A stretch of DNA of 64,000 nucleotides. Origin: Escherichia phage CLB_P2. The notes under the pieces were generated by a model. The model searched no databases and had not been told where the DNA came from. It worked only from the letters and a program-made list of their open reading frames with translations. The DNA lies in sequence record OL770107. One strand, 5' to 3'. A program made the position numbers and the translations under genes. Below, piece after piece: positions 17,004 through 59,935 of this stretch; the first letter of the stretch is position 1; every line of letters starts with the position of its first letter.

Positions 17004-17045
17004 GTTTTACAAAGGGCCTTAGTGATGATACTATAGGCCTATCAA
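17004..17045 (+). promoter_or_regulatory. early promoter / stem-loop cassette (PeSL-like)
   Basis: GTTTTAC -35-like element, about 18-nt spacer, TACTAT -10; inverted repeat flanks the -10. Confidence 0.45.
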
Positions 17046-17072
17046 AAACAAACTAACCAAATGGAAATCAAA

Positions 17073-17351
17073 ATGAAAACTTATCAAGAATTTAGTAAAT
17101 CTCAAAAAGTGGCTCCTATCAATGAAGCCAGTGTTATGAGTGAAGTTATAGCCCTAAACAAAGGCCGTGAAGGTAAACCGGTTATCGGTCTTAATGGTGA
17201 TGAACTTAAAGGTACTGTTTATCTGGGCGACGGTTACCATGCTAAAAAAGACGGTGGGAGCATTGTTATTTCCCCGGCTCAAGAATCTTCTGTAATGAAA
17301 ACCGTTTACATCGCCACCAAGCACTTTGATATTTTGAAAAAAGCACTTTAA
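17073..17351 (+). CDS. ipI: internal head protein, ipI-locus type
   Basis: Starts MKTYQEF (T4 internal-protein capsid-targeting leader); 92 aa; located between 57B and the tRNA cluster as ipI is in T4. Confidence 0.6.
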   Translation: MKTYQEFSKSQKVAPINEASVMSEVIALNKGREGKPVIGLNGDELKGTVYLGDGYHAKKDGGSIVISPAQESSVMKTVYIATKHFDILKKAL

Positions 17352-17356
17352 AGTTA

Positions 17357-17396
17357 TTTACAACGGGCTCTAGTGATGATACTATAGCCCTATCAA
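17357..17396 (+). promoter_or_regulatory. early promoter / stem-loop cassette (PeSL-like)
   Basis: TTTACA -35, GATACTAT -10, inverted repeat gggct/agccc around the -10; conserved leader GAGTGATTGGAGAATAAAATG. Confidence 0.5.
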
Positions 17397-17421
17397 AACA
17401 AATGAGTGATTGGAGAATAAA

Positions 17422-17607
17422 ATGAAACGTTGTGAATTAATTAGAAATGTTACTGCACTGGCCGCCGTTACTGCTTTTGGCTTTAGTATGTTTGCAGGAT
17501 TCATGTTGGATTTGCTTACAACTTCCGAGAATACAATCTCTTTAGTAGTGGCATTCTTAATTGGTTCAATCTCTTTTGTTATGGATAAAATCTCTAAAGG
17601 TGAATAA
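17422..17607 (+). CDS. small membrane protein
   Basis: ATG after conserved leader GGAGAATAAA; two hydrophobic segments. Confidence 0.4.
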   Translation: MKRCELIRNVTALAAVTAFGFSMFAGFMLDLLTTSENTISLVVAFLIGSISFVMDKISKGE

Positions 17608-18008
17608 TGAACGTTGAATATTATGTATATGCGGATTACGAAAATAATCCGTCTAAAGATGAAGATAATCGTTTAGGTGTAGATGCTTTCGATTCCCCTG
17701 CTGCGGCATGGCAATGGGTTGAAAGTACTGATATTCCTTACCGTTATATTGAAGTGGTAGACCATGCAGGAAACAAGTATCCTAAGGAAGCATATGTTCC
17801 TTCCGGAAAGGTAAATTTCCTTTTGTTCGCAGGTGATAATTATTATCCACGTGGTGGGTATACCGATTTAATCGCTAAAGCATTCTCTGAAGATGAACTG
17901 CGCGATATCATTAAAGAAAATGAGAATAAACCTCTTTATGGTTTCGATCGTTTTGACTGGTGGCAGATTGTTAATGCCAATACCCACACTATTGTAGACG
18001 AGGGTTAA
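17607..18008 (+). CDS. hypothetical protein
   Basis: 133 aa ORF, ATGA overlap with upstream gene; no recognisable motif. Confidence 0.45.
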   Translation: MNVEYYVYADYENNPSKDEDNRLGVDAFDSPAAAWQWVESTDIPYRYIEVVDHAGNKYPKEAYVPSGKVNFLLFAGDNYYPRGGYTDLIAKAFSEDELRDIIKENENKPLYGFDRFDWWQIVNANTHTIVDEG

Positions 18009-18299
18009 ATGTTATACGTTAAGGTTACTAATCCAGAGAATGGCTATAAATCCGATCAGGTTGCTGCTGAGCTGTTGATTCGAAATTACGGCAAAGATGC
18101 TGTGCTTAATGTTCAACAGGTTAATATTGGCCGTAGTTCAAGCGATGTTAAACTCAAAGTTAACGGCCAACGCTATAATTCTGTTAACTTTACTTTTTAT
18201 ACTGCAACTGAAAACGGACTGGTCGAATACGACATCTTTAAAAATCCTTTGAAGATTGCTTCTATTAAACTTGATTATATTAATATGTGGCCGCAATGA
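18009..18299 (+). CDS. hypothetical protein
   Basis: 96 aa ORF starting 1 nt after the upstream stop. Confidence 0.45.
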   Translation: MLYVKVTNPENGYKSDQVAAELLIRNYGKDAVLNVQQVNIGRSSSDVKLKVNGQRYNSVNFTFYTATENGLVEYDIFKNPLKIASIKLDYINMWPQ

Positions 18300-18772
18300 A
18301 TATTAAATTTGGACAAGTTATTCCTAAAGGGTATGTTCTTGAAATCGAAACCTGGGAAAATGATGGCGATAACTATAAAACCCAGACTATATTTGGCGTA
18401 GAAGAACACGAAATCCAACAGTACAAATATATCTTAGAACTTTTCCATGGTTCGCATTGCAACAGCCCGGATAAATGTGGTAATTCGGAATGGGACGTAG
18501 TTAAGCACTTGGTTATTGCCCACATTGAATCAGGTGTAAAATCAGGTCAGTTGACTCCTGAATTTTTAGATAAAGTCCTTGGTATCCAAGACTTAGAAGC
18601 TTTGCTGAATGACGATGAAGAAGAATACTACTTGAATGAAGCCCTTACTGAACTCCTCGGTATGGCTTGTGAATATGATGGCGATTTTATCCGTGTAATT
18701 TCTTATGTCAAGCTGTATATCATTGAAGAAGAAATTAAAATTCCTGATGTGAAAGCACTTGATATGCTTTAA
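18296..18772 (+). CDS. hypothetical protein
   Basis: ATG at 18296 overlapping upstream TGA (ATGA); 158 aa; acidic C-terminal half. Confidence 0.45.
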   Translation: MNIKFGQVIPKGYVLEIETWENDGDNYKTQTIFGVEEHEIQQYKYILELFHGSHCNSPDKCGNSEWDVVKHLVIAHIESGVKSGQLTPEFLDKVLGIQDLEALLNDDEEEYYLNEALTELLGMACEYDGDFIRVISYVKLYIIEEEIKIPDVKALDML

Positions 18773-18857
18773 GAATTATGTGATATTATTACTCTATCAT
18801 TAATACCCTCTATTACCAAAGGTTCTTCCCTCAAAGAGCCTTTCATAATAGAATTAA

Positions 18858-18931
18858 GGCCCTGTAGCTGGACGGTCAAGCGAGCGACTCATAATCGCTG
18901 GATGGTGGTTCGATTCCACCCAGGGCCACCA
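18858..18931 (+). tRNA. tRNA with CAT anticodon (Met, or Ile if lysidine-modified)
   Basis: 74 nt cloverleaf: 7-bp acceptor stem ggccctg/cagggcc, anticodon loop cTCATAa, T-arm ggtgg-ttcgatt-ccacc, encoded CCA. Confidence 0.75.
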
Positions 18932-18935
18932 ATTT

Positions 18936-19010
18936 GGATGTGTAGCTCAGCGGTAGAGCAGTTGACTGTTAATCAATTGGTCCATGGTTCGAATCCATGC
19001 ATGTCCGCCA
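18936..19010 (+). tRNA. tRNA-Asn (GTT)
   Basis: 75 nt: acceptor stem with two G-U pairs, anticodon loop cTGTTaa, T-arm catgg-ttcgaat-ccatg, encoded CCA. Confidence 0.7.
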
Positions 19011-19014
19011 AATA

Positions 19015-19090
19015 CGAGGCATAGCTCAGAAGGAAGAGCAAGGACCTTCTAAGTCCTGGGTCGTAGGTTCGATCCCTACTGTCTCGACCA
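19015..19090 (+). tRNA. tRNA-Arg (TCT)
   Basis: 76 nt: acceptor cgaggca/tgtctcg (one G-U), anticodon stem aggac/gtcct with loop cTTCTaa, T-arm gtagg-ttcgatc-cctac, CCA. Confidence 0.75.
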
Positions 19091-20007: not shown

Positions 20008-20050
20008 TGTTTACACCTCCTTTAAACGTGATACTATAGACCTATCAAAA
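20008..20050 (+). promoter_or_regulatory. early promoter / stem-loop cassette (PeSL-like)
   Basis: GTTTAC -35, GATACTATAGACC -10 region, conserved leader ending GGAGAGTAAAATG. Confidence 0.55.
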
Positions 20051-20072
20051 CAACAGAGTGAAGGAGAGTAAA

Positions 20073-20336
20073 ATGGATAATTATGGTGAATTGTTTAATT
20101 TCTTTATGAAATGCGTTCCTGAAGAATTTGGTGCTACTGTTAACGATATTAAGGTTATAGGTGATGACCATCCCATATTTGAAACCTACGCAGTAATGGG
20201 TAATGACGATGGGCAGTGGTATACTGTAAAGGTTGTGGTTAATATGTTTGCTGCCGAAGGTTACGTCAAATTGTCTACCAAAGTTTATCACGATAACGAT
20301 TTTGATGCGGAAGATTATTTCAATAATATGAAATAA
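20073..20336 (+). CDS. hypothetical protein
   Basis: ATG 7 nt after SD AGGAG (track ORF begins at an upstream GTG); 87 aa. Confidence 0.45.
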   Translation: MDNYGELFNFFMKCVPEEFGATVNDIKVIGDDHPIFETYAVMGNDDGQWYTVKVVVNMFAAEGYVKLSTKVYHDNDFDAEDYFNNMK

Positions 20337-20338
20337 TT

Positions 20339-20376
20339 GTTTACATGGGCTCATGATTGAGATATTATGAGCCCGT
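20339..20376 (+). promoter_or_regulatory. early promoter / stem-loop cassette
   Basis: GTTTAC -35; inverted repeat gggctcat/atgagccc enclosing TATTAT -10. Confidence 0.5.
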
Positions 20377-20393
20377 AATTTGAGGAGAGCATA

Positions 20394-20792
20394 ATGAATA
20401 TCGAAGATAAAGAAATGCAAGAGTTGTATAATTCATTAACACCTGAGCAACAAAAAGCTGCCAAAGAATTAGAGAAAGCTCTTACTTTCAGCTTGGCAAA
20501 AACTGATTGGGCCGCCATGTATGAAGAAAAAAGGAGATCGGAAATTGAAGCTGTCGAGAGAAATGAATGGATTGTAGAAACCAAGATTTCTGATGGTGGT
20601 TGCTCTGTTGAGGTGTCAGCTGTGGTTAAAGGTACTCATGGTGAAAAATCACTAGGTTGGCATAATGAGGCAAACAAATATATTGTTCTCTCAACGTCAA
20701 AAACTTACGGCCAAAGGGTTCCTGTATCCAAAGCTATTATTAAGCAAGCTCAATGGGAAGCCAATGAAATTTGCCTCGCAAAAATGAAATAA
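20394..20792 (+). CDS. hypothetical protein
   Basis: 132 aa ORF with SD GAGGAG upstream. Confidence 0.5.
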
Positions 20793-20795: not shown

Positions 20796-20835
20796 GTTTA
20801 CAACCCTCAGAGGACAGGGTATAATGTCCTCATGG
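20796..20835 (+). promoter_or_regulatory. early promoter / stem-loop cassette
   Basis: GTTTAC -35, TATAAT -10 inside inverted repeat gaggaca/tgtcctc. Confidence 0.55.
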
Positions 20836-20868
20836 ATTACAAAATACCAACCTACTGAAGGAAATACT

Positions 20869-21462
20869 ATGAATACTTTAAAGAAAATTGTTGAATTCAT
20901 CCGTTCTAAACTGGGTACCGCGATGACTCAGAACCTGTCAATCGAAGACCAGTATACTAAAGCTGCTTCTACCCTGATTGATAAAATTACTGAACTCCAG
21001 ACTGCTCATGTTAAGTCGGTGAATGAAGAAAAACGTATTCGTGAACTTGCTAACGAAAAAGACCAGCTCGCTGCTTCTAAAGAACGTGAAATTCGTAAAC
21101 TGATTAAAGAAGGCGCCGATGTCCAGGTGCATGCTAAACTTGGCCTCCTTTATCGTCGTACCGCTAATCAACTTCGTAAGAAAGCAGACGATTATATCGA
21201 AATGCGTAATGAAATTAAACTGAAGGTCAAGGAACTTGATGACTCTCGTCAAGAACTGGCTGTTAAGCTCGAGTACATCCGTGAAACTCGTAATATGGCT
21301 GCCCTTGGTATTGCTACTGCCGATGATGTGGTTGAAATCGCTGCACTGACTAAGATTGATATTGAAGATACCCTGCTGCGTGTAGAAACGTTTAAAGGCC
21401 CACAAGTTGGAATGGATACGACTTCAGCCGATATCGAAGACTACATTAATTCACTTAAGTAA
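20869..21462 (+). CDS. coiled-coil protein, PspA/IM30-like (tentative)
   Basis: 197 aa, heptad-rich helical sequence with charge pattern reminiscent of PspA/Vipp1; start at ATG after SD AAGGA. Confidence 0.35.
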
Positions 21463-23885: not shown

Positions 23886-24215
23886 ATGCACAAAGATTCA
23901 GTATTCAAATATCTTTTGAAAACAGATAAAGAATTCTATATGAATGGGCAAGCTTTCTTGTTCGTTCGTGGTAAACGTGAGATGTTTTATAAGTGCGACC
24001 TCTCAATGCACCATCATATGTATCATACCCACGGCGAGCCTATACTAGGGTTCTCCGGTGACGAGACTAGACACATAGCCATGTACTACGACCATTTTAA
24101 GCTCAATGATTGTGGTGACAACGCTCTGGTCTGGAATCCATCTTGGCGGCGTTGGGATACAGTAGACAGCGATAAATTATTTTTAGAATATTGCAGAAGT
24201 GATGTACAACTCTAA
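23886..24215 (+). CDS. hypothetical His-rich protein
   Basis: ATG preceded by SD AGGAGG; contains HHHMYHTH stretch. Confidence 0.45.
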   Translation: MHKDSVFKYLLKTDKEFYMNGQAFLFVRGKREMFYKCDLSMHHHMYHTHGEPILGFSGDETRHIAMYYDHFKLNDCGDNALVWNPSWRRWDTVDSDKLFLEYCRSDVQL

Positions 24216-24259
24216 AAACTTGTGTTACTATTACCTTACACAAACATGAGGAGAACATT

Positions 24260-24499
24260 ATGTGGTATTACTCTCCACTGTCTGATAAGTCTGATGAGCC
24301 GGTACGCATTAGTCGTGCCAAGTTTAAAAAGATTTATGGCTTTGCCTATAAGAAGTCTGATTATGGTGTTCGTTTTGAAGACGCTCACTGTATCAACGAC
24401 CCTTATGCCGAAGAAATCTCTAATGAGATAATTCCTATCATTAAGAATAATTCTGATGATATGTGGGAATTGCATAACGATTACGTTGCTGAAATTTAA
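24260..24499 (+). CDS. hypothetical protein
   Basis: 79 aa ORF with SD GAGGAG upstream. Confidence 0.45.
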   Translation: MWYYSPLSDKSDEPVRISRAKFKKIYGFAYKKSDYGVRFEDAHCINDPYAEEISNEIIPIIKNNSDDMWELHNDYVAEI

Positions 24500-25660: not shown

Positions 25661-25673
25661 TTGCATAAAACAG

Positions 25674-25712
25674 TGTACAAGGTCTATAGGTGTGATACTA
25701 TAGACCTATCAA
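25674..25712 (+). promoter_or_regulatory. early promoter / stem-loop cassette (PeSL-like)
   Basis: GTGTAC -35-like; inverted repeat ggtctatag/ctatagacc around GATACTAT; conserved leader. Confidence 0.5.
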
Positions 25713-25738
25713 AACAACAGAGTGAAATGGAGAATAAA

Positions 25739-25951
25739 ATGAAACTTTCTAACCAAGCAATCAACATGTTAAACGAAGTTCGTGCAGCTGGTGCTAAATG
25801 TCTGATGGTTAACACTCGTGACGGTGACCTTCGTCAAGCATTTGGTGAATTGAAATCTGCTGACCTGGTTAAATGTTCGGTTGGTATCGGTAATGCACTT
25901 CGTGTATCCTTATCCCCTAAAGGTAAAATGTACTTTTTCAACAAAAAGTAA
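25739..25951 (+). CDS. hypothetical small protein
   Basis: ATG after conserved leader GGAGAATAAA; 70 aa. Confidence 0.45.
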   Translation: MKLSNQAINMLNEVRAAGAKCLMVNTRDGDLRQAFGELKSADLVKCSVGIGNALRVSLSPKGKMYFFNKK

Positions 25952-26016
25952 TATACATTCTCGTAAGATATGTTATTATAGACCTATCAAAACAAATGAG
26001 TGAATTGGAGAATAAA

Positions 26017-26247
26017 ATGAAAGCCATCATGAGTGTTTTAGCCCTGAGCTTGGTTGCTTTAGCTGCAGTTCCTTTTATTGTTGATGTTGGAGACGAAACA
26101 CAAGTTGAATCCTCAATCGTTGTCAGTAAAGATGGTACATCGGTTAAGATCGGTAATAATCTCCATATGAATCCTAATGGTACTTTAGGTGTTCAGCTCG
26201 GTAACACATGTGTAAGCACAACTGGTAAAGTTAATACTTGCTTCTGA
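26017..26247 (+). CDS. small secreted or membrane-anchored protein
   Basis: N-terminal hydrophobic signal-like segment; preceded by a near-duplicate of the 25674 promoter-leader cassette. Confidence 0.45.
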   Translation: MKAIMSVLALSLVALAAVPFIVDVGDETQVESSIVVSKDGTSVKIGNNLHMNPNGTLGVQLGNTCVSTTGKVNTCF

Positions 26248-28727: not shown

Positions 28728-28770
28728 GTTTACATCTCCGGTAGGCATGATACTATAGACCTATCAACTA
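28728..28770 (+). promoter_or_regulatory. early promoter / stem-loop cassette (PeSL-like)
   Basis: GTTTAC -35, 17-nt spacer, TACTAT -10; inverted repeat flanking; leader CAACTACAGGAGATTAAAATG. Confidence 0.55.
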
Positions 28771-28782
28771 CAGGAGATTAAA

Positions 28783-29199
28783 ATGACTCGTATCAACCTT
28801 ACCTTAGTATCTGAATTGGCCGACCAACACCTTATGGCTGAATACCGTGAATTACCACGTGTTTTCGGTGCAGTTCGTAAGCATGTTGCTAACGGTAAAC
28901 GTGTTTGTGATTTTAAAATCAGCCCTACTTTTATCCTTGGTACAGGCCATGTTACATTCTTTTATGATAAGCTTGAATTTTTATGTAAGCGTCAAATTGA
29001 GCTTATAGCTGAATGTTTAAAACGTGGCTTTAATATCAAGGATACTACAGTCCAGGACATTAGTGATATTCCTCAGGAATTCCGTGGTGATTATGTTCCT
29101 CACGAAGCTTCTATCGCTATTTCACAAGCCCGTTTGGATGAAAAAATTGCACAACGTCCTACCTGGTACAAACATTATGGTAAGGCGATTTACGCATAA
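28783..29199 (+). CDS. denV: endonuclease V (pyrimidine dimer DNA glycosylase)
   Basis: 138 aa; [40 protein letters not shown] ... essentially identical to T4 endonuclease V as recalled. Confidence 0.9.
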
Positions 29200-30649: not shown

Positions 30650-30692
30650 GTTTACATCTCCTGTAGACGTGGTACTATAGACCTATCAACTA
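30650..30692 (+). promoter_or_regulatory. early promoter / stem-loop cassette (PeSL-like)
   Basis: GTTTAC -35; inverted repeat cctgtag/ctacagg around GGTACTAT; near-duplicate of the 28728 cassette. Confidence 0.55.
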
Positions 30693-30706
30693 CAGGAGAT
30701 TACAAA

Positions 30707-31165
30707 ATGTCAGAAATTAATTCAGAAGTATTCATCCGCCGCAACAAATTACGTCGTCAGTTCGAAACCGAATTTCGTGAACTTAACGCGTCCATCAAAA
30801 AAGCCGCCATTAAGAGCGGTGTCCCAGCTTTCTTTATTAAGTACTCTAATCACTTGTTGGACCGTGCTATCCAACGTGAAATTGACGAAAAATATGTTTT
30901 CTCTTTGTTCAAGAAGCTCCACAATCATGTTAAAGAAATCCATGAATTTTTAATCCAGGAGCCTCTTCCTGACATAGAATCTGAAATTGTCCCAGGTAAA
31001 GTGTATCGTCCACTGCGTCTCGAGATTACCGATAAAACCTTATGGTTGGGTATGACCGTAGATCGTAAACATCCTGATAAAGGATATTCATTAAAATGTC
31101 GTATGGCATTTGTTAATTCTAAACGTTTAGAAGGTAAAACCAGCACGAAAGTAATCTATCTTTAA
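30707..31165 (+). CDS. regB: RegB site-specific endoribonuclease
   Basis: 152 aa; VFIRRNKLRR.FE.EFR and HLLDRAIQREIDE.YVF match T4 RegB as recalled. Confidence 0.8.
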   Translation: MSEINSEVFIRRNKLRRQFETEFRELNASIKKAAIKSGVPAFFIKYSNHLLDRAIQREIDEKYVFSLFKKLHNHVKEIHEFLIQEPLPDIESEIVPGKVYRPLRLEITDKTLWLGMTVDRKHPDKGYSLKCRMAFVNSKRLEGKTSTKVIYL

Positions 31166-34577: not shown

Positions 34578-34620
34578 GTTTACATCCTCTAGGAACGTGA
34601 TACTATAGACCTATCAACTA
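34578..34620 (+). promoter_or_regulatory. early promoter / stem-loop cassette (PeSL-like)
   Basis: GTTTAC -35, GATACTATAGACC, conserved leader. Confidence 0.55.
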
Positions 34621-34634
34621 ATGAGGAGAATAAA

Positions 34635-34865
34635 ATGAAAACCACCACCAACCTGAAAGTTATCGATATCGCTAAAGCTTCTAAAGCACTTAAAGTTAAA
34701 GCTGAAGATTTTGAAAACGCTACCTTTGCTATTATCGAACAAAATGGTAAAGTAACCGGTTTAGAAGTTTATGAAGCTACTAAGTTCCAATCACAGCCTA
34801 AAATGGTTATTGGTACTAAATCTGTAACTATCGAAAAAGCTTTAGCATTATTCGAAAAAATTTAA
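34635..34865 (+). CDS. hypothetical protein
   Basis: 76 aa ORF after promoter cassette. Confidence 0.45.
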   Translation: MKTTTNLKVIDIAKASKALKVKAEDFENATFAIIEQNGKVTGLEVYEATKFQSQPKMVIGTKSVTIEKALALFEKI

Positions 34866-38081: not shown

Positions 38082-38125
38082 GTTTACCCTCTCGTAGAGC
38101 ATGTTATTATGGACCTATCAAATCT
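38082..38125 (+). promoter_or_regulatory. early promoter / stem-loop cassette
   Basis: GTTTAC -35, TATTAT -10, conserved leader GAGTGAAACGGAGAATATAATG. Confidence 0.5.
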
Positions 38126-38147
38126 ACTGAGTGAAACGGAGAATATA

Positions 38148-39128
38148 ATGTTAACTATCAAAATCAACAAAGGTATCTATCGCGGTAATGAAATCTCTGG
38201 TACGTTCATGAGTTCAGGTAAAACCTGGTTCCCTAATAAAATTCATGAATCTGAAGCTCACCTCGGTGATGGCAAGGTATTCGTACAGATTGATGGTGTT
38301 GAACGTGGTGTGTGGGTGTTCAAATGTGACGTTGAAATGGAAGGTGCTGAAGCTCCTGTAATGGTTACCGAATCCTCTGAAGAAATGAAACATCGCATCA
38401 ACAAACGTTTTAAAGTAATGAACATGATGACTAACGGAATCATCGATGGTAAAATTCGTTCCCTTATCATCTCTGGTGCCGCAGGTATTGGTAAAACCTA
38501 CTCTTTGGATAAAGCATTACAAAATGCCCACGAAAATGAAACTATCGAATATAAATCAATCAACGGAAAGATTAGTGGAATCGGTCTTTACGAGCAGCTT
38601 TGGAATAACCGCGGCCCTAATAGTGTTCTTCTTATTGATGATGTTGATGTATTCTCTGACATGGATATCCTGAACCTTCTTAAAGCCGCATTGGATACCG
38701 GTGAGAAACGTAAGGTGTGCTGGAGCACTTCAAGTTCTTATCTCGATGATAAAAATATCGATAAAGAATTCGAATACGAAGGCACCATCGTGTTCATCAC
38801 CAACGTTGACATTGACCGTGAATTAGAGCGTGGAACTAAACTTGCTCCACACCTCCAGGCTTTAGTATCTCGTTCGGTTTACTTAGACCTCGGAGTTCAC
38901 TCGAATGAAGAGATTATGGTTCGTGTTGAAGACGTTATCCTGTCCACTGATATGATGCAAAACCGAGGTCTGACTGATGCTGAGACTTATCAAGCTCTAG
39001 CATGGATGAAGGCCAATGTATCTCGTCTTCGTAACGTATCATTACGCACGGCTCTTTACCTGGCGGACTTCATTGCCACCGATAAAAATGACTGGAGCGA
39101 AATCGCTGAAGTTACACTTCTGAAATAA
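38148..39128 (+). CDS. P-loop NTPase (AAA-like ATPase)
   Basis: Walker A GAAGIGKTYS and Walker B VLLIDDVD; start at ATG after conserved leader. Confidence 0.55.
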   Translation: MLTIKINKGIYRGNEISGTFMSSGKTWFPNKIHESEAHLGDGKVFVQIDGVERGVWVFKCDVEMEGAEAPVMVTESSEEMKHRINKRFKVMNMMTNGIIDGKIRSLIISGAAGIGKTYSLDKALQNAHENETIEYKSINGKISGIGLYEQLWNNRGPNSVLLIDDVDVFSDMDILNLLKAALDTGEKRKVCWSTSSSYLDDKNIDKEFEYEGTIVFITNVDIDRELERGTKLAPHLQALVSRSVYLDLGVHSNEEIMVRVEDVILSTDMMQNRGLTDAETYQALAWMKANVSRLRNVSLRTALYLADFIATDKNDWSEIAEVTLLK

Positions 39129-39482: not shown

Positions 39483-39525
39483 GTTTACATCTCCAGTAGA
39501 AATGATACTATAGACCTATCAACTA
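39483..39525 (+). promoter_or_regulatory. early promoter / stem-loop cassette (PeSL-like)
   Basis: GTTTAC -35; inverted repeat ccagtag/ctactgg around GATACTAT. Confidence 0.55.
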
Positions 39526-39537
39526 CTGGAGGTTATC

Positions 39538-40062
39538 ATGAACGCTAAAGATATTTTTTCACTGATTAATTTTAACAATGGTAATTTCAAATCCGAAAAA
39601 CAAAGCAAGTTCTTTAATGACGTTGCTTGTGGTAATGAGATTACCGTATCTGGAGGAGAGATTTACAAAAGCCGTTGGAACTGGATTGCTGTCATCGATT
39701 CAGTTGGTATTGTAGAGCTCTACAAAAACACCAACAAAAAACGTACTCTTCACTGGAGTCGTGAAACCAACCAAGCTTATCAAGCTGAGCGTAATAAACG
39801 TTTAATGCCTACTGAATCTGACCTGGCAAACGTTAAATCAGATATCGCTTATTTTGATAACTTAATTGCCAAACAACAAGCGGTTATTGATAAGTTTGAC
39901 GAAATCAAAGCTTGTAAAGAGATTCCTGAATTTATGCGGGAATCAGTAAACGAACAGTACGCCCTCACTTCAGGTCGTATCGAGCAGTACAAATCACAAC
40001 GAGCTGAACGCCAAGCTCTGCTTCAGAAATTTGAAGAGCGTTTAAAGACGGTTCTCGCATAA
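39538..40062 (+). CDS. hypothetical protein
   Basis: 174 aa ORF; C-terminal helical region. Confidence 0.45.
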   Translation: MNAKDIFSLINFNNGNFKSEKQSKFFNDVACGNEITVSGGEIYKSRWNWIAVIDSVGIVELYKNTNKKRTLHWSRETNQAYQAERNKRLMPTESDLANVKSDIAYFDNLIAKQQAVIDKFDEIKACKEIPEFMRESVNEQYALTSGRIEQYKSQRAERQALLQKFEERLKTVLA

Positions 40063-40090
40063 ACGCTTTATACCAAGGATGGTATAATGG
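40062..40090 (+). promoter_or_regulatory. candidate MotA-dependent middle promoter
   Basis: CGCTTTA (MotA-box-like) then 12-nt spacer and TATAAT. Confidence 0.4.
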
Positions 40091-40125
40091 TTCTAGGTTC
40101 TTAATTACTTACTGAGGAAATTATT

Positions 40126-40971
40126 ATGTCACAAGCAATTAATCAAATTCGTTCTGAAGTTAAAAAAGTTGTTAAATTTGGTCGTATTCCTAGTTCTAAA
40201 GAAGTGGTTGAAAAGGTCCTATATATGATGTGGGACAAGTTCAATGTTTGTACTGTTAAAGATGACTTTATTAAAATCTTTGACAAGACTAAAGGTTCGT
40301 TTACGTTAGAAGACCGGGTCATGAAAACTCTTCGTAAAACAGGTATGTTGTCTCGTGCTAATGCCAAAATTATTCTTAAAAATTATAACAAAGGCTACGA
40401 CCTTTATGGTCGTTTAATCCCGGCGATGTCATTTGGTGAAGTTGTTCAAGACCTTCATGCCAACCAACGACGTCTACTGGCTCTTGGCGCTCGACTTGCA
40501 AAAGGTCTTGATAAACAAATGACATTTAAGACTAACGGTTCAGGTGATTGGATTATCTTTAATATTGTTAACCACCCTGGAAATGAAAATGAGTATACCA
40601 TTTCAACTTTTAGTGGTTGTCAATATGACAACTGGAAGTTCCATCTGCGCTTGGCCCTGTCTGAATTAGAACAACACGGTGTTCTTAGTTTTGGTGATGC
40701 TGAAACTGGAGTAGGCCAACGTATTAAACTTTATAAAATTAAAGACCTGGCTGAAGAGCATTCAGAACAAGCTCCTAAAATGGAACCTGTACCAGTGCGC
40801 AGCAATGAGAAACATCAAGCCCAGATTGAGTATTTTAGCAATTTGCTTACTTGCTTGAATGTTACAATCCAACAACAAGATGATGAGATTTTCCGACTCT
40901 CTGGTCTGAATGCCAAAGCTAAGGCTGAACGCCGGAAATATATCGATATCCTAAATCTTCTTAAGGATTAA
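40126..40971 (+). CDS. hypothetical protein
   Basis: 281 aa; shares leader and first codons MSQAI with the 47491 gene. Confidence 0.45.
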   Translation: MSQAINQIRSEVKKVVKFGRIPSSKEVVEKVLYMMWDKFNVCTVKDDFIKIFDKTKGSFTLEDRVMKTLRKTGMLSRANAKIILKNYNKGYDLYGRLIPAMSFGEVVQDLHANQRRLLALGARLAKGLDKQMTFKTNGSGDWIIFNIVNHPGNENEYTISTFSGCQYDNWKFHLRLALSELEQHGVLSFGDAETGVGQRIKLYKIKDLAEEHSEQAPKMEPVPVRSNEKHQAQIEYFSNLLTCLNVTIQQQDDEIFRLSGLNAKAKAERRKYIDILNLLKD

Positions 40972-42143: not shown

Positions 42144-42180
42144 GTTTACATCCAAGGACGGATGGAGTATAATCCTTTTA
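42144..42180 (+). promoter_or_regulatory. early promoter / stem-loop cassette
   Basis: GTTTAC -35, GGAGTATAAT -10 inside inverted repeat aagga/tcctt. Confidence 0.55.
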
Positions 42181-42201
42181 TCAACTACTGAGGAGAATAT
42201 C

Positions 42202-43212
42202 ATGACCCGTACTGAATACATCAATGCCTTTACTACGTATATCACTGACAATACCCCTCCATTAACCCCATATGAGGTGATAGTTTCTAATATCAATAAA
42301 TGGGTAGACCAAATTGACGAAGATTTGTCGCTGTATTTTAAATCTGAAATAGAAAAGATTGCAGGGCGTTTGTTTATCCCTGATATCATAGATACATTTA
42401 AAGGTTCTCGACTGCTTTCGCGGCTGGTTAATAAGGATATCCTTTCAGAGTTTGGCAAAGAGAAACACCCAGGTTCCAGCCACGTTGTTAGCTACCAATG
42501 GTTTGGTGATGTTTTAAAAAGCTATATCAAAATGAAAGGTATGGATCCTAGTGGTCTATTTCCACAGCGTTGGACTAGCGAATTTAAGGCTAACTCTGCA
42601 TTAATTCTCAAAGCGGCCTCTAAAACCATAGTTTCTGGTGATTCCCGTACTATTCACCCTATGGCTAATTGCATGATTAAAACAAATAGTTATAAAGGAA
42701 AAGCTATTATTTCTGTTATTTGGTCACCTAATAGGAAACCTAAAGATGACGCGGAAGTTGTAAAGTATCAAGATATTGCTTACGACACCTTGAATATTAT
42801 CGAACAAGCCTTAGCTTTTATGGATACAGTAGAGAAATATGAGACTCAAGAAGTAAAACATTTCTATGGCTGGAAAGGATACGAGGTCTTAGTAAAAGTC
42901 CGCGAAATCAAATGTCCTGTTCCAAAAACCGATGCTGAAATTTACCAAGAAAAATGTGAGGAAATTGTGAACACCGATAAAGAGCCTGCTACATTAGAAG
43001 ACTTGATTAATGACTTGAATAGCCCTATCATGGCTCCTACACCAATTACTAAATCCAAGTTACCGGAAATCGTTGCCTTAGAAAAAGCGTATAAAGATGC
43101 CCTTGCTATTAACAAAAAACTGACTGGCCAATATACCGCTGCCAAGAAACTTTGGGAAGAGTCTACCAATCGTTTAGACCGTCTTGAACAAGCTCTGGAG
43201 CTGTTGAAATGA
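42202..43212 (+). CDS. hypothetical protein
   Basis: ATG after SD GAGGAG; 336 aa. Confidence 0.45.
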   Translation: MTRTEYINAFTTYITDNTPPLTPYEVIVSNINKWVDQIDEDLSLYFKSEIEKIAGRLFIPDIIDTFKGSRLLSRLVNKDILSEFGKEKHPGSSHVVSYQWFGDVLKSYIKMKGMDPSGLFPQRWTSEFKANSALILKAASKTIVSGDSRTIHPMANCMIKTNSYKGKAIISVIWSPNRKPKDDAEVVKYQDIAYDTLNIIEQALAFMDTVEKYETQEVKHFYGWKGYEVLVKVREIKCPVPKTDAEIYQEKCEEIVNTDKEPATLEDLINDLNSPIMAPTPITKSKLPEIVALEKAYKDALAINKKLTGQYTAAKKLWEESTNRLDRLEQALELLK

Positions 43213-44442: not shown

Positions 44443-44475
44443 GTTTACAACGATTCCGAAATAGAGTATAATGAA
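44443..44475 (+). promoter_or_regulatory. early promoter (sigma70-type)
   Basis: GTTTAC, 17-nt spacer, GAGTATAAT. Confidence 0.55.
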
Positions 44476-44897
44476 CCTTCAAACAATGATTTAATCGATA
44501 TGGAGTTTGGATATGAGTACCAAAATTGAAATTGGCCGTCATAAAGGCCGTCTGATTGAACATTCGCTTTACGAGTTATCGGATTCGGGTTCTTTACCTG
44601 ACCTAGAGTCTGATTTGATTAAAGCTGCAGCCGATTATATCCATTGGCTTGAAGCGCAACTCCGCTTTTCTGACGAGGTCTTCTGATGAAAACTAAATTA
44701 GTCTATACCGAAAAGTTAAATGGTGACAAGGTCTGGAAACTTCTTATCAAAGGAAGTCCTACTGACCAGTTTATGGCCACTTGTGTAGGATTATATACCC
44801 GTCCTACCAAAAAGATGATTCGTCAATTTAAAAGGTTGCATCGCTCATTTTATAACGTTTAATAAATACCCTTATCTAATAATGGTAAGGGTTTATT

Positions 44898-46300: not shown

Positions 46301-46345
46301 GTTTACTTCCTCTCCTCACGTGTTATAGTCTATCCTATCAACACA
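46301..46345 (+). promoter_or_regulatory. early promoter / stem-loop cassette
   Basis: GTTTAC -35; inverted repeat ctcctcacgtg/cacatgaggag. Confidence 0.5.
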
Positions 46346-46531
46346 TGAGGAGAACATTATGACTATCCAAGATAAAGAAATTAAAGTCAACCAGTATTAT
46401 TCAATCAACGGCAAAGCTGTTCTAGTAACTGAAATATCTAGCCTGGACGTGTGGTATACCATAATTGACCTTAATATTAAAATGATTTGTGACCGTGGTG
46501 TATTTTGTTCGATAGCTAAGGAAATTAAATT

Positions 46532-46788: not shown

Positions 46789-47082
46789 ATGGGTAAAACT
46801 ATCCGTCGTAAAGAATTGTCTGTAAAAGATTTTTATTATTCCGGACGCCGTAAAGCACCAGATGGCGTAAGTCAGGAACGAGTTGAAGAAAATATCTTCC
46901 GATCTGACAAGTGGAAACGTATGCGTGGCGTTGATTCTGAAGTTAAGAATGAAATGAACCGCCAACTTCGTAAAGAAGTAAGAAAACTGAAAAAAGATGT
47001 TTACAGCGACGATGAACCTGATTACAATACTTCTCATCGAGTTGCAAAACGTAAATCAAACGAATGCTATCGTTACAGCTGA
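46789..47082 (+). CDS. hypothetical basic protein
   Basis: 97 aa, Lys/Arg-rich. Confidence 0.4.
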   Translation: MGKTIRRKELSVKDFYYSGRRKAPDGVSQERVEENIFRSDKWKRMRGVDSEVKNEMNRQLRKEVRKLKKDVYSDDEPDYNTSHRVAKRKSNECYRYS

Positions 47083-47221: not shown

Positions 47222-47422
47222 ATGAATCCTGAATCTAAATTATCACAACGAATTGCTGAAGCTCGTCGTCAGTTCTTTGAAAATATGATAGCTCAAGGTA
47301 TTGATGACGAAGTTTTTCTAAACTGGTTTTGGAATAACAAATATTCAAAATGCTCAGGAGCAATATTAATATCGGCCGCGATGATGTATGAAGGTTGGAA
47401 AGGTGCATTAGCACAAAAATAG
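47222..47422 (+). CDS. hypothetical protein
   Basis: 66 aa ORF. Confidence 0.4.
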   Translation: MNPESKLSQRIAEARRQFFENMIAQGIDDEVFLNWFWNNKYSKCSGAILISAAMMYEGWKGALAQK

Positions 47423-47460
47423 TTTACAAACTCTTGGGACCAGAGTATAATGGTCCCACG
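47422..47460 (+). promoter_or_regulatory. early promoter / stem-loop cassette
   Basis: GTTTAC, 18-nt spacer, TATAAT inside inverted repeat gggacc/ggtccc. Confidence 0.55.
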
Positions 47461-47490
47461 GATTATAAATTTTAAACTGAGGAAATTATT

Positions 47491-47820
47491 ATGTCACAAG
47501 CTATTAAAAACGTACTGAACTCTTTCGCTTTCGATAAAGTTAACGAACTGATGAAAACCGGCTTTGTAACTCCTCAGGTTCTTGACCAATGGGTTGCTGA
47601 ACTGTTACCAATCATGCACTCTAAAGACCAAAAAATTGGTAAGAACGGTATTCGTGAAATCCTGGTTCAATATATTCTCGACGAATTTGATGTGGCCGCC
47701 TTTGGTGTCGAATCTAAAGCTTGGTGCCCGGGTGAAATCACGGACAAAACCATCCGTCGTATGAAGAATCAACGTAAGAAAAAATTCGTTGACCTGAAAA
47801 TTGTTAAGGCTGCTAAATGA
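47491..47820 (+). CDS. hypothetical protein
   Basis: 109 aa; same leader and MSQAI start as the 40126 gene. Confidence 0.45.
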   Translation: MSQAIKNVLNSFAFDKVNELMKTGFVTPQVLDQWVAELLPIMHSKDQKIGKNGIREILVQYILDEFDVAAFGVESKAWCPGEITDKTIRRMKNQRKKKFVDLKIVKAAK

Positions 47821-56874: not shown

Positions 56875-56875
56875 T

Positions 56876-57091
56876 ATGATTCTTGAAATTGAAATGTGTG
56901 AACGTCTTAAAGAGGTGTACGGGCTTTCACCAACTCAAACTGTTTTTGACCTTTCCGAAGAGCTCCAAATAGAATTTCAAAAGGACCTCCATAAGTTACT
57001 ACATCCAGGTCAGCAAGTCTTCCAGGCTATGGTTAGAACTAAAGGCGAAGATGGCAATCCGATTATTAAACGTTTGACAATAGAAATTTAA
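56876..57091 (+). CDS. hypothetical protein between regA and 43
   Basis: 71 aa ORF starting 1 nt after regA stop. Confidence 0.35.
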   Translation: MILEIEMCERLKEVYGLSPTQTVFDLSEELQIEFQKDLHKLLHPGQQVFQAMVRTKGEDGNPIIKRLTIEI

Positions 57092-57094
57092 GCA

Positions 57095-57117
57095 AAGGGA
57101 CTTCGGTCCCTTTTTTG
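57095..57117 (+). terminator. rho-independent terminator
   Basis: Hairpin gggac-ttcg-gtccc followed by TTTTTT. Confidence 0.65.
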
Positions 57118-57174
57118 GAGTATAATTATTCATCAACAAACAAAAGACAATCACTCGTCTATAAAGGAAATGAA

Positions 57175-59886
57175 ATGCAAGAATTCTATTTGACAGTCGA
57201 ACAAATCGGTGATAATATTCTCGAACGTTACATCGATAAAAATGGTAACGAACGTAGTCGTGAAGTTCCTTACAAGCCTACAATGTTTATGCATGCTAAC
57301 CCAGAGCAAGCCGTAAAATATATTGACATCTACGGTAAGGGCTGTGTTAAGAAAGAATTCAATTCAATGCGCGATGCTTCTCAGTGGATGAAGCGCATGG
57401 ACGATATGGGTCTCGAAGCCCTTGGTATGGATGACTATAAATTAGCCTATTTGTCTGATACCTATCGTAAAGAAATCAAGTATGATTCTTCTAAGATTCG
57501 TATTGCTAACTTCGACATCGAGGTAACATCTCCTGATGGATTCCCTGAACCTGCCCAGGCTAAACATCCTATCGATGCCATTACTCACTACGACTCGATT
57601 GATGATAAATTCTATGTATTCGACCTTTTAGTTTCACCTTATGGTACGGTCGAAGAGTGGTCGATTAAAATCGCTGAGAAACTCCAAGACGAAGGTGGTG
57701 ACGAAGTTCCACAGGAAATCATTGACAAAATCGTTTATCTTCCGTTTAATTCTGAAGAAGAAATGATGCTTGAGTATCTTAATTTCTGGCAACAGAAAAC
57801 TCCTGTGATTTTGACTGGATGGAACGTTGAATCATTTGACGTGCCATACGTTTATAACCGTCTGAAAAATCTGTTTGGTGAGAACACTGCTAAGCGATTA
57901 AGCCCGCATCGTAAGACTCGTGTTAAAGTTATCGAGAACATGTACGGCGCTCGCGAAATTATTACACTGTTCGGTATCTCTGTTCTGGATTATATCGACC
58001 TTTATAAAAAATTCAGCTTTACCAACCAGCCTTCTTATTCTCTGGATTATGTTTCTGAATATGAATTGAAAGTAGGTAAGTTGAAATATGATGGCCCTAT
58101 CTCCAAGTTACGTGAGACGAACCACCAACGATATATTTCCTATAACATTATCGACGTATATCGTGTTGTGCAGATTGATATGAAACGCCAGTTCATTCTT
58201 CTTAGTCTGGACATGGGTTACTATGCCAAGATGCAGATTCAGTCGGTGTTCAGTCCAATTAAGACTTGGGACGCCATTATTTTTAATAGCCTTAAAGAAC
58301 AGGGTAAAGTTATTCCTCAGGCCAAATCGCATGCGGTTCAACCTTATCCGGGTGCTTTCGTTAAGGAACCTATTCCTAACGCGTACAAATATGTAATGAG
58401 TTTCGACCTTACATCTCTGTACCCGAGTATCATTCGACAAGTGAATATAAGCCCAGAGACCATCGCAGGCACATTCGCCAACGCACCGATACATGAATAT
58501 ATTGCCGGAACTGCTCCGCGTCCTAGCGACACCTACAGTTGCTCTCCTAACGGCATGATGTACTATAAAGACCGTGATGGTGTGATTCCTACAGAAATCA
58601 CGAAGGTGTTCTTACAACGTAAAGAACATAAAGGTTATATGCTTGCAGCTCAACGTAATGGTGAGTTAATTAAAGAAGCATTAGAAAATCCTAATCTGTC
58701 TGTTGATAGTCCATTGGATGTTGATTATCGTTTCGACTTCTCTGACGAAGTCAAAGCCCAGATTAAAAAATTGTCAGCATCTTCTTTAAAAGAAATGTTG
58801 TTCAAAGCCGAACGTACTGAAGTCGCAGGTATGACTGCTCAGATTAACCGTAAATTGCTTATCAACTCCCTTTATGGTGCACTTGGTAACGTATGGTTCC
58901 GTTACTATGACCTCAGGAACGCAACTGCAATAACATTGTTTGGTCAAATGGCCCTCCAATGGATTGAACGTAAGGTTAACGAATATCTGAATGGCGTATG
59001 TAAGACCGAAAACCAGAAGTTCGTGCTTTATGGTGATACTGACTCCATTTATGTTAAGGCTGATGCAATTATCAATAAAGTAGGCGAAGACAAATTCCGT
59101 GATACCAACCACTGGGTTGACTTCTTAGATAAATTTGCACGTGAACGTATGGAACCAGCTATTGATGCAGGCTTCCGTGAGATGTGTGAATACATGAACA
59201 ATAAACAGCACTTGATGTTCATGGACCGAGAAGCTATCGCTGGTCCTCCACTTGGTTCTAAAGGTCTTGGTGGATTCTGGACAGGCAAGAAACGTTATGC
59301 ACTGAACGTTTGGGACATGGAAGGTACTCGTTATGCCGAACCACACTTGAAAATCATGGGTCTCGAAACCCAGAAATCAAGTACACCTAAAGCGGTTCAG
59401 AAAGCTCTGAAAGAATGTATCCGTCGTATGCTTCAAGAAGGCGAGGCCTCTTTGCAAGAATATTTCAAACAGTTTAATAAGGAATTTAACGAACTAGACT
59501 ATGTAAGCATTGCTGCAGTATCCAGTGCTAACAACATCGAGAAATATAATGAAGGCGGTTTCCCTGGTTCTAAATGTCCGTACCACATCAAAGGTTGCTT
59601 AGCTTACATGCGTGCTTCTGCTGGTGATTTGACTATGCCTCGTATCGTTGATGGTGAAAAGGTATATGTACTACCACTTAAAGAAGGCAACCCGTTCGGT
59701 GAAGCTTGTATGGCATGGCCGTCAGGTATTGAACTTCCGATTCAGATTCGTGACCAAGTCCTCCGTTGGATGGACTACAACGTATTGTTCCAAAAGACCT
59801 TTATCAAACCTCTGACCGGTTTTACTGAGTCTGCTAAAATTGACTACGAGAAAAAAGCAACATTATTTGACATGTTCGACTTTTAA
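57175..59886 (+). CDS. 43: DNA polymerase gp43 (family B)
   Basis: 903 aa from MQEFY; exonuclease motifs (FDIE, YNIIDV), polymerase motifs SLYPSII, KILINSLYGALG, YGDTDS match T4 gp43. Confidence 0.9.
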   Translation: MQEFYLTVEQIGDNILERYIDKNGNERSREVPYKPTMFMHANPEQAVKYIDIYGKGCVKKEFNSMRDASQWMKRMDDMGLEALGMDDYKLAYLSDTYRKEIKYDSSKIRIANFDIEVTSPDGFPEPAQAKHPIDAITHYDSIDDKFYVFDLLVSPYGTVEEWSIKIAEKLQDEGGDEVPQEIIDKIVYLPFNSEEEMMLEYLNFWQQKTPVILTGWNVESFDVPYVYNRLKNLFGENTAKRLSPHRKTRVKVIENMYGAREIITLFGISVLDYIDLYKKFSFTNQPSYSLDYVSEYELKVGKLKYDGPISKLRETNHQRYISYNIIDVYRVVQIDMKRQFILLSLDMGYYAKMQIQSVFSPIKTWDAIIFNSLKEQGKVIPQAKSHAVQPYPGAFVKEPIPNAYKYVMSFDLTSLYPSIIRQVNISPETIAGTFANAPIHEYIAGTAPRPSDTYSCSPNGMMYYKDRDGVIPTEITKVFLQRKEHKGYMLAAQRNGELIKEALENPNLSVDSPLDVDYRFDFSDEVKAQIKKLSASSLKEMLFKAERTEVAGMTAQINRKLLINSLYGALGNVWFRYYDLRNATAITLFGQMALQWIERKVNEYLNGVCKTENQKFVLYGDTDSIYVKADAIINKVGEDKFRDTNHWVDFLDKFARERMEPAIDAGFREMCEYMNNKQHLMFMDREAIAGPPLGSKGLGGFWTGKKRYALNVWDMEGTRYAEPHLKIMGLETQKSSTPKAVQKALKECIRRMLQEGEASLQEYFKQFNKEFNELDYVSIAAVSSANNIEKYNEGGFPGSKCPYHIKGCLAYMRASAGDLTMPRIVDGEKVYVLPLKEGNPFGEACMAWPSGIELPIQIRDQVLRWMDYNVLFQKTFIKPLTGFTESAKIDYEKKATLFDMFDF

Positions 59887-59888
59887 GT

Positions 59889-59935
59889 GTTTACATACCA
59901 CATGGAATGTGGTAGTATCCTTCCTATCAACTACA
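59889..59935 (+). promoter_or_regulatory. early promoter / stem-loop cassette
   Basis: GTTTAC -35; inverted repeat ccacatgg/ccatgtgg; TAGTAT -10. Confidence 0.5.

Follow-up and report, generated by a model that had tools for sequence, protein, structure and literature searches.

Early-promoter elements with embedded inverted repeats in a Dhakavirus genome, and predicted Shine-Dalgarno masking in a subset of them

What are the short repeats that punctuate the early region of Escherichia phage CLB_P2, and what does the inverted repeat inside them do? We analysed a 64,000-nucleotide (nt) stretch of this genome (sequence record OL770107; the whole stretch is called the window below), in which an initial annotation had described at least 16 plus-strand copies of an element with a GTTTAC -35 hexamer, a -10 hexamer enclosed in an inverted repeat and a conserved leader, and had likened them to the promoter-early stem-loops (PeSLs) of T4-type phages. 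That identification is right: the elements are very probably sigma-70-dependent early promoters of the T4 type with a built-in hairpin, equivalent to PeSLs, and in a subset of them the hairpin would mask the Shine-Dalgarno (SD) sequence of the downstream gene. The accompanying evolutionary claim, that the elements mark the boundaries of recently acquired genes, is overstated.

The repeat family and its T4 counterparts

An nhmmer profile built from the 16 obvious copies yielded 18 confident ones (E<=4.5e-4) between 17005 and 59951, all on the plus strand, comprising the seed copies and two non-seed copies (24202 and 25951). Each element is 58-76 base pairs (bp) long and spans the gap from a stop codon to the next ATG. 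This abundance is far above chance: GTTTAC-N17/18-TAnnnT gave 16 matches, 15 of them on the plus strand, against 1.75 expected (0 of 100 shuffles), and, with up to two mismatches, the -10/leader core TAYTATAGNCCTATCAA gave 10 against 0.11 and the SD/ATG motif GAGGAGAATAAAATG 9 against 0.39. A generic sigma-70 scan was not discriminating, with 67 promoter-like sites for 57 expected. The shuffle statistics reject a chance origin of the repeats; a mobile repeat of the miniature inverted-repeat transposable element or repetitive extragenic palindrome type was also rejected, because orientation and place relative to start codons are fixed.

The layout in the window runs from an A-tract through GTTTAC, 17-18 bp of spacer, TGn-TAyTAT and agaCCTATCAAc to the SD and the ATG. 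The whole CLBP2 genome, rebuilt for a genome-wide count, holds about 45 copies on a single strand, confined to the early arc. Aligning the copies, as the initial annotation had proposed, gave a 42-copy consensus, aaaaAa..GTTTACatc..c...caTGaTActATagaCCTAtcaA, with TGn in 35 of the 42 and an A fraction of 0.57-0.81 at positions 3-8 nt 5' of the -35 hexamer. The single conserved leader end once described does not hold: the exact string GAGGAGAATAAAATG occurs once only, at 34623, and there are instead several start-region families in the window (GGAGAATAAAATG four times, CTGAGGAAATTATTATG twice, TGAGGAAAATATTATG three times, GAGGAGAACATTATG twice). From SD to ATG, three of these start regions are repeated verbatim: TGAGGAAAATATTATG at 24508, 24688 and 26245, CTGAGGAAATTATTATG at 40112 and 47477, and GAGGAGAACATTATG at 24248 and 46347. 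Near-identity between individual copies was confirmed for 28728 and 30650 (86% over 71 nt) but not for 25673 and 25951, which are 75% identical, mainly in the -10/leader half.

Several features argue for early promoters: the -35 and -10 hexamers lie 17-18 bp apart, TGn and an A/T-rich UP region are present, and the direction is that of the early genes. T4 early promoters are known as sigma-70 "uber" promoters that combine UP, -35, TGn and -10 with extra conserved positions (Hinton 2010, PMC2988021), and the T4/PST PeSL consensus is TTTACW-N17-TAYWAT (PMC4122927). On the homologous 50 kb of T4, the nhmmer profile of the window copies predicted 17 sites (the T4 GenBank record has no promoter features), each directly 5' of one gene: ipI, trna.4, e.8, e.7, e.6, ipIII, ipII, denV, regB, mobD.5, mobD.2, nrdC.10, nrdC.8, nrdC.4, pin, 55.6 and imm.1. 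Their common leader is (C)TATCAACTAC...GGAGAATAAAATG; T4 itself thus has the same extended consensus, in line with the PeSL identity proposed earlier. Positional orthologues of these T4 sites account for 13-14 of the 18 window copies (at ipI, trna.4, e.8, e.7, e.6, denV, regB, nrdC.10, nrdC.8, nrdC.4, pin, 55.6 and imm.1). Standing 5' of the same genes as in T4, these copies are therefore old and conserved and, judged by these positions, the promoter family is old and not restricted to CLBP2. The promoter role is predicted from sequence and T4 homology: host RNA polymerase would recognise the A-rich UP region, the GTTTAC -35, the TGn-extended TAyTAT -10 and the start region CCTATCAAc, and would start about 7 nt 3' of the -10, and the resulting mRNA would carry a leader of 18-37 nt with the SD a few nt 5' of the ATG.

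The genomic setting is that of a T4-like phage. Positions 17000-37000 of the window match Dhakavirus CLBP2 (OZ035781.1, an unannotated record) at 100% identity, Escherichia phage dhabil at 98.6% and other JS98/IME08-type T4-like phages at about 91%. According to annotated relatives, its plus strand is the T4 early/middle gene arc, with first 57B, internal proteins, tRNAs, e.x, nudE, e, denV, vs, regB, tk and rI, and then mobD, nrdC.x, 49, nrdH, 55.x, 55, 47, 46, 45, 44, 62, regA, 43 and imm; the first 13 kb of the window are late genes on the opposite strand.

The embedded inverted repeat and the Shine-Dalgarno sequence

When each copy was folded from the -35 to the ATG, the 5' arm of the inverted repeat always lay 5' of +1, between the -35 and +1, and the 3' arm either just behind the -10 or over the SD. 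In the first register, a stem of 5-13 bp surrounds the -10, as the initial annotation had supposed in general; this is the case in about 40% of copies (for example 17005, 17356, 20339, 20796, 25673 and 47422). In the second, found in about 25-30% (among them 28728, 30650, 39483, 46301 and 20009), the paired segments are instead the spacer beside the -35 (ATCTCCnGTAG) and the SD region (CTACnGGAGAT). The two registers are often nested, as in the denV element (E9 below) and several regB promoters, and fold z-scores of the window copies range from -1.8 to -6.1. Since the 5' arm precedes +1, RNA begun at the element's own promoter lacks it, and the hairpin is restricted to transcripts that enter from upstream. 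The 18 predicted early promoters, with lengths of the downstream products in amino acids (aa), are:

E1, 17005..17075, plus strand: 5' of an internal head protein gene (92 aa); nhmmer E=4.6e-12; -35 TTTTAC, -10 TACTAT at 17029, ATG at 17073; hairpin GGCCT/AGGCC round the -10, fold -12.9 kcal/mol, z=-2.5; positional orthologue in T4, the ipI promoter.
E2, 17356..17424, plus strand: 5' of a trna.4-like gene (61 aa); nhmmer E=2.5e-15; -35 ATTTAC, -10 TACTAT; hairpin GGGCT/AGCCC round the -10, fold z=-1.9; T4 orthologue at 73572; right boundary of an internal-protein replacement relative to IME08.
E3, 20009..20075, plus strand: 5' of e.8 (87 aa); nhmmer E=1.1e-15; SD AAGGAG paired by spacer CTCCTT, fold z=-1.8; SD unpaired probability 0.89 in own RNA, 0.25 in read-through RNA.
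E4, 20339..20396, plus strand: 5' of a 132-aa open reading frame (ORF) at the T4 e.7 position; 13-bp hairpin ATGGGCTCATGAT/ATTATGAGCCCGT round the -10 TATTAT, fold -19.7 kcal/mol, z=-4.9; T4 orthologue at 70359 with its own hairpin ATAGGCT/AGCCTAT.
E5, 20796..20871, plus strand: 5' of e.6 (197 aa); nhmmer E=5e-10; -10 TATAAT; hairpin GAGGACA/TGTCCTC round the -10.
E6, 24202..24262, plus strand: weaker, non-seed copy 5' of a 79-aa ORF; nhmmer E=4.5e-4; -35 ATGTAC overlapping the end of the upstream ORF, -10 TACTAT; kept in dhabil, dhaeg and IME08.
E7, 25673..25741, plus strand: 5' of a 70-aa ORF; nhmmer E=6.5e-15; -35 GTGTAC; 10-bp hairpin AGGTCTATAG/CTATAGACCT taking in part of the -10, fold -15.4 kcal/mol, z=-2.8.
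E8, 25951..26019, plus strand: non-seed copy; nhmmer E=9e-11; -35 ATATAC, -10 TATTAT; leader half closely like that of E2; forms with its 76-aa ORF a cassette (25952-26244) between a TAA stop and the TGAGGAAAATATTATG of the next gene.
E9, 28728..28785, plus strand: denV promoter with nested hairpin, fold -14.7 kcal/mol, z=-2.8; outer stem ATCTCC/GGAGAT over the SD, inner stem GGTAGG/CCTATC round the -10; SD unpaired probability 0.00 in read-through RNA, 0.34 in own RNA.
E10, 30650..30709, plus strand: regB promoter; perfect 11-bp repeat ATCTCCTGTAG/CTACAGGAGAT pairing spacer with SD, fold -18.3 kcal/mol, z=-3.8.
E11, 34578..34637, plus strand: 5' of a 76-aa ORF; best nhmmer match, E=2e-16; weak CCTC/GAGG pairing; canonical terminator (34540-34565) just 5'.
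E12, 38082..38150, plus strand: 5' of nrdC.10 (326 aa); nhmmer E=4e-15; -10 TATTAT; weak pairing; T4 orthologue at 55384.
E13, 39483..39540, plus strand: 5' of nrdC.8 (174 aa); 11-bp stem ATCTCCAGTAG/CTACTGGAGGT over the SD with one G.U, fold -18.3 kcal/mol, z=-3.6.
E14, 42144..42204, plus strand: 5' of nrdC.4 (336 aa); nhmmer E=3.8e-12; -10 of GAGTATAAT type; weak AAGGA/TCCTT repeat round the -10; T4 orthologue at 50973.
E15, 44443..44515, plus strand: 5' of a pin-like ORF (57 aa); nhmmer E=3.8e-8; no convincing hairpin; almost invariant in IME08 and TH22; T4 orthologue at 47452.
E16, 46301..46361, plus strand: 5' of 55.6 (58 aa); 13-position stem TCTCCTCACGTGT/ACACATGAGGAGA over the SD, fold -21.1 kcal/mol, z=-6.1; SD unpaired probability 0.01 in read-through RNA, 0.89 in own RNA.
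E17, 47422..47493, plus strand: 5' of 55.2 (109 aa); hairpin TGGGACCA/TGGTCCCA round the -10 TATAAT, fold -16.7 kcal/mol, z=-2.4; compensating arms GGGAGC/GCTCC in a paralogue at another place in the genome.
E18, 59889..59951, plus strand: behind gene 43, 5' of an imm-like gene (78 aa); nhmmer E=7.2e-13; -10 TAGTAT; local CCACAT/ATGTGG hairpin in the spacer; T4 orthologue at 27080 precedes imm.1.

Complementarity between the arms exceeds what permutation of partners leaves. Spacer-leader duplexes have a mean energy of -10.8 kcal/mol when native and -7.6 when partners are permuted, and none of 20000 permutations reached the native value; across 61 copies (CLBP2 plus Gaprivervirus TH22) the helix score is 6.66 native and 4.74 permuted, with 49 of the 61 scoring at least 5; the corresponding values in T4 are 7.29 and 4.83 (0 of 1000). 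Individual pairs are compensated between phages as well: the closing pair of E4 is U.G (T.G) here, C-G in dhabil and dhaeg and U-A (T-A) in IME08, and the IME08 orthologue of E1 has compensating arms GGTCTATAG/CTATAGACC. At the e.6 promoter (E5), TH22 keeps the register with different arms, GGGAACAT/ATGTTCCC (GGGAAC/GTTCCC); E13 is compensated relative to E10 (T-A to A-T), IME08 having G.U at that pair, and the T4 nrdC.8 promoter uses the arms GTTCCTCTGT/ACGGAGGAAC. Internal G.T pairs number 15 and A.C pairs 3 (null 54% G.T; p about 0.01). This excess points to selection acting on RNA of the sense strand instead of on double-stranded DNA, and favours a promoter-embedded hairpin that is selected as RNA.

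In the window, the SD-masking subset comprises denV, regB, nrdC.8 and 55.6 and, more weakly, e.8 (SD unpaired probability in read-through RNA 0.00-0.25). A gene was called switch-like when the probability of an unpaired SD was under 0.2 in its read-through RNA but over 0.5 in its own RNA; we found this pattern in 16% of 43 promoter genes compared to 2% of 108 control genes (accessibility difference p=0.003). The denV loci in IMG/VR supplied 32 distinct T4-like upstream sequences, and in 31 of them the denV SD is paired in read-through RNA (median SD unpaired probability over the 32 of 0.001, vs 0.52 in own RNA). These sequences use 22 different 3' arms and place the 5' arm in two geometries, directly behind the -35 or at the end of the -10 plus discriminator, and their native pairing is 8.95, vs 5.70 when permuted (maximum 6.80 in 1000 permutations). 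The regB SD is likewise masked in 15 of 18 related loci, through at least 5 arm designs. The conservation of masking at denV suggests that its translation is limited to own-promoter transcripts.

Together, these observations lead us to propose two roles for the repeat. In the lower stem, an anti-SD directly 3' of the -35 would pair with the SD of the downstream gene; the masked gene (denV, regB, nrdC.8, 55.6 or e.8) would be translatable from its own early transcript and closed in read-through RNA. The upper stem, round the -10 and +1, might serve as an attenuator or 3'-end stabiliser of upstream transcripts, which is where the argument is weakest. What we computed is complementarity, covariation and predicted accessibility; the effect on translation would follow by analogy with T4 e, soc, 49 and I-TevI. 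A tentative extension, which we regard as plausible rather than probable, is that an anti-SD between the -35 and +1 is common in early promoters of the T-even group (T4, Dhakavirus, Gaprivervirus and relatives) and masks the SD in all but their own transcripts. If true, translation of denV, regB and nrdC.8 would be gated to their own early transcripts, and part of the PeSL "stem-loop" would be a translational switch instead of a terminator. We found no description of SD masking embedded in early promoters in T4 reviews or PeSL papers, though an earlier one may exist; the SD-masking register, kept across genera, is the sole part of this work with some novelty.

A different denV layout was seen in four jumbo-phage contigs from IMG/VR (L039, L040, L042 and L046; 345-378 kb). 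Unlike in the T-even group, the 95 nt 5' of denV contain a canonical terminator hairpin that holds a TTGAC -35-like hexamer and is followed by a TATAAT-like -10 (TATAAT or TATTAT), and the SD is free.

Alternative readings and neighbouring features

Several points weigh against hairpin-bearing early promoters with a masked SD. Start sites and expression timing in CLBP2 are deduced from sequence, and about a quarter of the copies lack a convincing hairpin (42144, 44443, 38082 and 59889). Over all 43 promoter genes, read-through SD masking is not significantly above controls (p=0.10), and we therefore treat it as the property of a subset. RNAalifold gave weak or no consensus on unselected MAFFT alignments (denV upstream regions and mixed SD-masking elements), because arm positions shift between copies, and it was replaced by the native-vs-permuted arm pairing above and a pair count on an in-register subset. 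In this subset, 94.2% of cells are paired vs 80.6% in shuffles, a percentage inflated by the picking of its 16 sequences for a common register; 5 of 11 pairs change on both sides and the covariation score is 0.326 vs 0.095 (0 of 500; slid controls <=0.065). Finally, the published experiment on an RB49/phi1 PeSL stem-loop showed a terminator-like drop in lacZ expression, not translational masking (PMC2839356).

The last point belongs to the alternative that survives best, namely that the stem-loops are terminators or attenuators which insulate early units from upstream transcription, SD masking being incidental; we consider it unlikely as a general account. The PeSL211/210 stem-loop lowered lacZ expression to an extent similar to that of the rrnB T1 terminator (PMC2839356), the formation of the hairpins in read-through RNA only and their G.U wobbles fit any RNA role, and the upper-stem copies leave the SD untouched. 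Yet the embedded repeats lack the G+C-rich stem, short loop and U-tract of an intrinsic terminator: their loops measure 9-27 nt, no T-run stands behind them, and what comes after the arms is ATCAAC or AT-rich sequence reaching to the ATG. A terminator scan of the window flagged none of the promoter-embedded repeats and did flag 34540-34565 and other sites, so that canonical terminators exist separately. Moreover, the feature conserved across phages at denV and regB is pairing with the SD itself, achieved through two geometries. For the stems round the -10, a terminator or attenuator role is possible.

Could the cassettes instead be, above all, mobile regulatory modules that recombine with one another (mini-circles, swaps), drive the shuffling of genes in this way and flag recent gains? 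This was the evolutionary claim of the initial annotation, and we find it quite improbable as a general rule, even if individual cases fit. We counted 22 indel or replacement events in 16-64 kb against three relatives (dhabil, dhaeg and IME08), and four of them touch an element, vs 5.83 under a random gene-junction null (P=0.87) and 1.66 under uniform placement (P=0.08); the comparison with relatives, also proposed at the outset, revealed no excess of such events at the elements over random gene junctions and only a weak one over uniform placement. In the first event, the internal-protein gene between E1 (17005) and E2 (17356) is swapped in IME08, homology stopping 36 nt (about 12 codons) into the ORF and resuming exactly at E2. 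In the second, the cassette of E8 and its 76-aa ORF is present here and absent from IME08. The third concerns denV, where IME08 has ipII and a different denV promoter in place of E9; the denV promoter being wholly different from that of IME08, and the regB promoter 86% identical to the denV one, exchange is suggested. Mini-circles have been demonstrated in RB49/phi1 (PMC2839356). In the fourth event, an ORF found at 30644 in dhaeg and IME08 adjoins E10; its reading as a PeSL-bounded cassette was rejected, because the ORF comes without a promoter and its junction shows TAA microhomology only. The remaining events lie at plain ORF junctions, flanked by nothing recognisable or, in one case, by the 16-bp repeated start region TGAGGAAAATATTATG. 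Against mobility stands also the T4 orthology of 13-14 of the 18 copies, located before conserved genes: most of these promoters are ancient and common to T4, not signs of new genes. The elements can be recombination substrates, and in the three-relative sample they are not markers of recent acquisitions. Similarity of 40-60 bp between copies would allow occasional recombination (the internal-protein gene swap, the E8 cassette, the denV-like sequence at the regB promoter) as a side effect, not a defining feature of the early promoters.

Other gene-content differences were recorded away from the elements. The first TGAGGAAAATATTATG pair (24508 and 24688) flanks a 50-aa ORF (24521-24673) absent from IME08, an indel that appears to have been mediated by the 16-bp SD repeat, not by a promoter. 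A 471-bp segment (18288-18758), absent from dhabil, dhaeg and IME08 and with an 8-bp overlap at its junction, lies between trna.2 and the tRNA cluster and carries a 161-aa ORF (18287-18772) with no Pfam match; Pfam gave no match for four indel ORFs. At 50204-50375, a 47-aa ORF (50236-50379) and a different promoter/leader lie between a terminator (about 50170) and gene 47, where dhabil, dhaeg and IME08 have other sequence (620 bp in IME08). Behind nrdC.11, about 240 bp (37846-38081) are devoid of a convincing ORF and finish, immediately 5' of E12, with a hairpin resembling a terminator, AGGACCCTTCGGGGTCCTTTTTT; IME08 lacks about 200 bp of this region, which are present in dhaeg and, at 78% identity, in TH22.

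A last alternative, that the inverted repeats act in DNA, as operators for regulators shutting off early promoters or as cruciforms modulating opening, is highly improbable: the repeat does surround the -10 and +1, the place expected for a repressor target, and the shut-off mechanism of T4 early promoters is called incompletely understood (PMC3014915), but the arms vary by copy while complementarity is kept, leaving no common recognition sequence (a palindromic operator was rejected on this ground), arm positions move between copies, and the 15-to-3 bias fits one RNA strand, not a duplex palindrome or two-sided cruciform.

Two plus-strand sites resemble the early promoters without belonging to the confident set:

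40066..40128, plus strand: degenerate relative 5' of nrdC.6; nhmmer E=0.039, 3' half only; no GTTTAC, CGCTTTA-N12-TATAAT instead.
46999..47028, plus strand: doubtful site, GTTTAC-N18-TACAAT within a coding region and without the leader consensus; nhmmer E=0.011; kept in relatives, probably on account of the coding sequence.

The first of these, which had been counted as a GTTTAC copy before the gene at 40126, looks like a MotA-type middle promoter. The observation that this gene shares its first five codons with the one at 47491 was correct, the codons falling within 31 nt common to both loci, ACTGAGGAAATTATTATGTCACAAGCnATT; the encoded proteins, of 281 and 109 aa, have only MSQAI in common and no blastp match. 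Sites resembling MotA-box middle promoters (TGCTTnA-N11-13-TAnnnT) number 13 in the window vs 3.2 expected, with plus-strand examples at 18765, 22306, 32352, 50190, 53727, 62128 and 63410; that at 18765 is directly 5' of the tRNA cluster, and that at 50190 precedes gene 47, right behind the terminator. The cluster consists of three tRNAs (18858-19087; Met, Asn and Arg as annotated in relatives), which were all that an Rfam scan of the window returned. They are followed, within a region spanning 18858-19300 in all, by about 200 nt ending in a terminator, with patches 83-92% identical to T4 rnaD/rnaC, a small stable RNA region; the matching stretch has no Rfam family.

Comparison with known systems

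The closest relatives of the elements are the T4 early promoters, with which they share the GTTTAC -35, the 17-18 bp spacing, the TGn-TAyTAT -10, the upstream A-tract, the start region (C)TATCAAC followed by a GGAG SD, and the orientation of the early genes; T4 PdenV is almost base-for-base equal to E9 and E10. They differ in that the genome here is a Dhakavirus, with promoter activity predicted, and in that 4-5 copies (24202, 25673, 25951, 47422 and perhaps 34578) are without a T4 counterpart in the region examined. A literature search on early promoters of JS98 or Dhakavirus gave only a passing mention of JS98 (PMC2839356), and a prior description may exist elsewhere; the predictions would provide an early transcription map for an unannotated Dhakavirus whose promoters had not been catalogued there before.

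With the PeSLs (Arbiol et al. 2010, PMC2839356; Comeau et al. 2014, PMC4122927), the elements have in common the succession of AT-rich region, early promoter, stem-loop, SD and ATG, the many copies in early or hyperplastic regions, the G-T pairs in stems and the location of some copies beside swapped or inserted ORFs. Five stem positions were published for PeSLs (between the -35 and -10, overlapping either box, 5' of the -35 and just 3' of the -10; PMC2839356), none of which pairs with the SD, and in T4/PST the stem was placed just 5' of the promoter. In contrast, we place the 5' arm within the spacer or discriminator, both here and on re-analysing T4, with the 3' arm behind the -10 or over the SD. 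The link to indel boundaries proposed for PeSLs is not statistically visible in the window.

The predicted masking has its precedent in T4 genes e, soc, 49 and I-TevI, whose ribosome-binding site (RBS) is sequestered in a hairpin with an internal late promoter (Uzan & Miller 2010, PMC3014915). The classical version is present in the window at gene e (28204-28236, TATAAATAcctcc...ggaggtattATG), about 500 bp 5' of its early-promoter analogue at denV: the late promoter TATAAATA overlaps the 5' arm AATACCTCC, the 3' arm GGAGGTATT covers the SD, and the lysozyme ATG is at 28234. The logic is common to both, since the SD is paired in long transcripts and RNA from the internal promoter lacks the 5' arm and is translatable. 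The internal promoter is the late TATAAATA in the T4 cases and an early sigma-70 promoter (GTTTAC/TAyTAT) here; a late TATAAATA within the 5' arm occurs at gene e (28204) only, and the masked early genes have none. The predicted confinement is accordingly to early own-promoter transcripts, not to late ones. Early-promoter cases are not among the examples of the Uzan & Miller 2010 review (PMC3014915), and those given here are predictions. If confirmed, they would mean that PeSL stem-loops are not simply terminators, would help to explain how individual early genes are confined in time despite pervasive read-through, and would extend the classic T4 trick, a late promoter within an RBS hairpin, to early genes.

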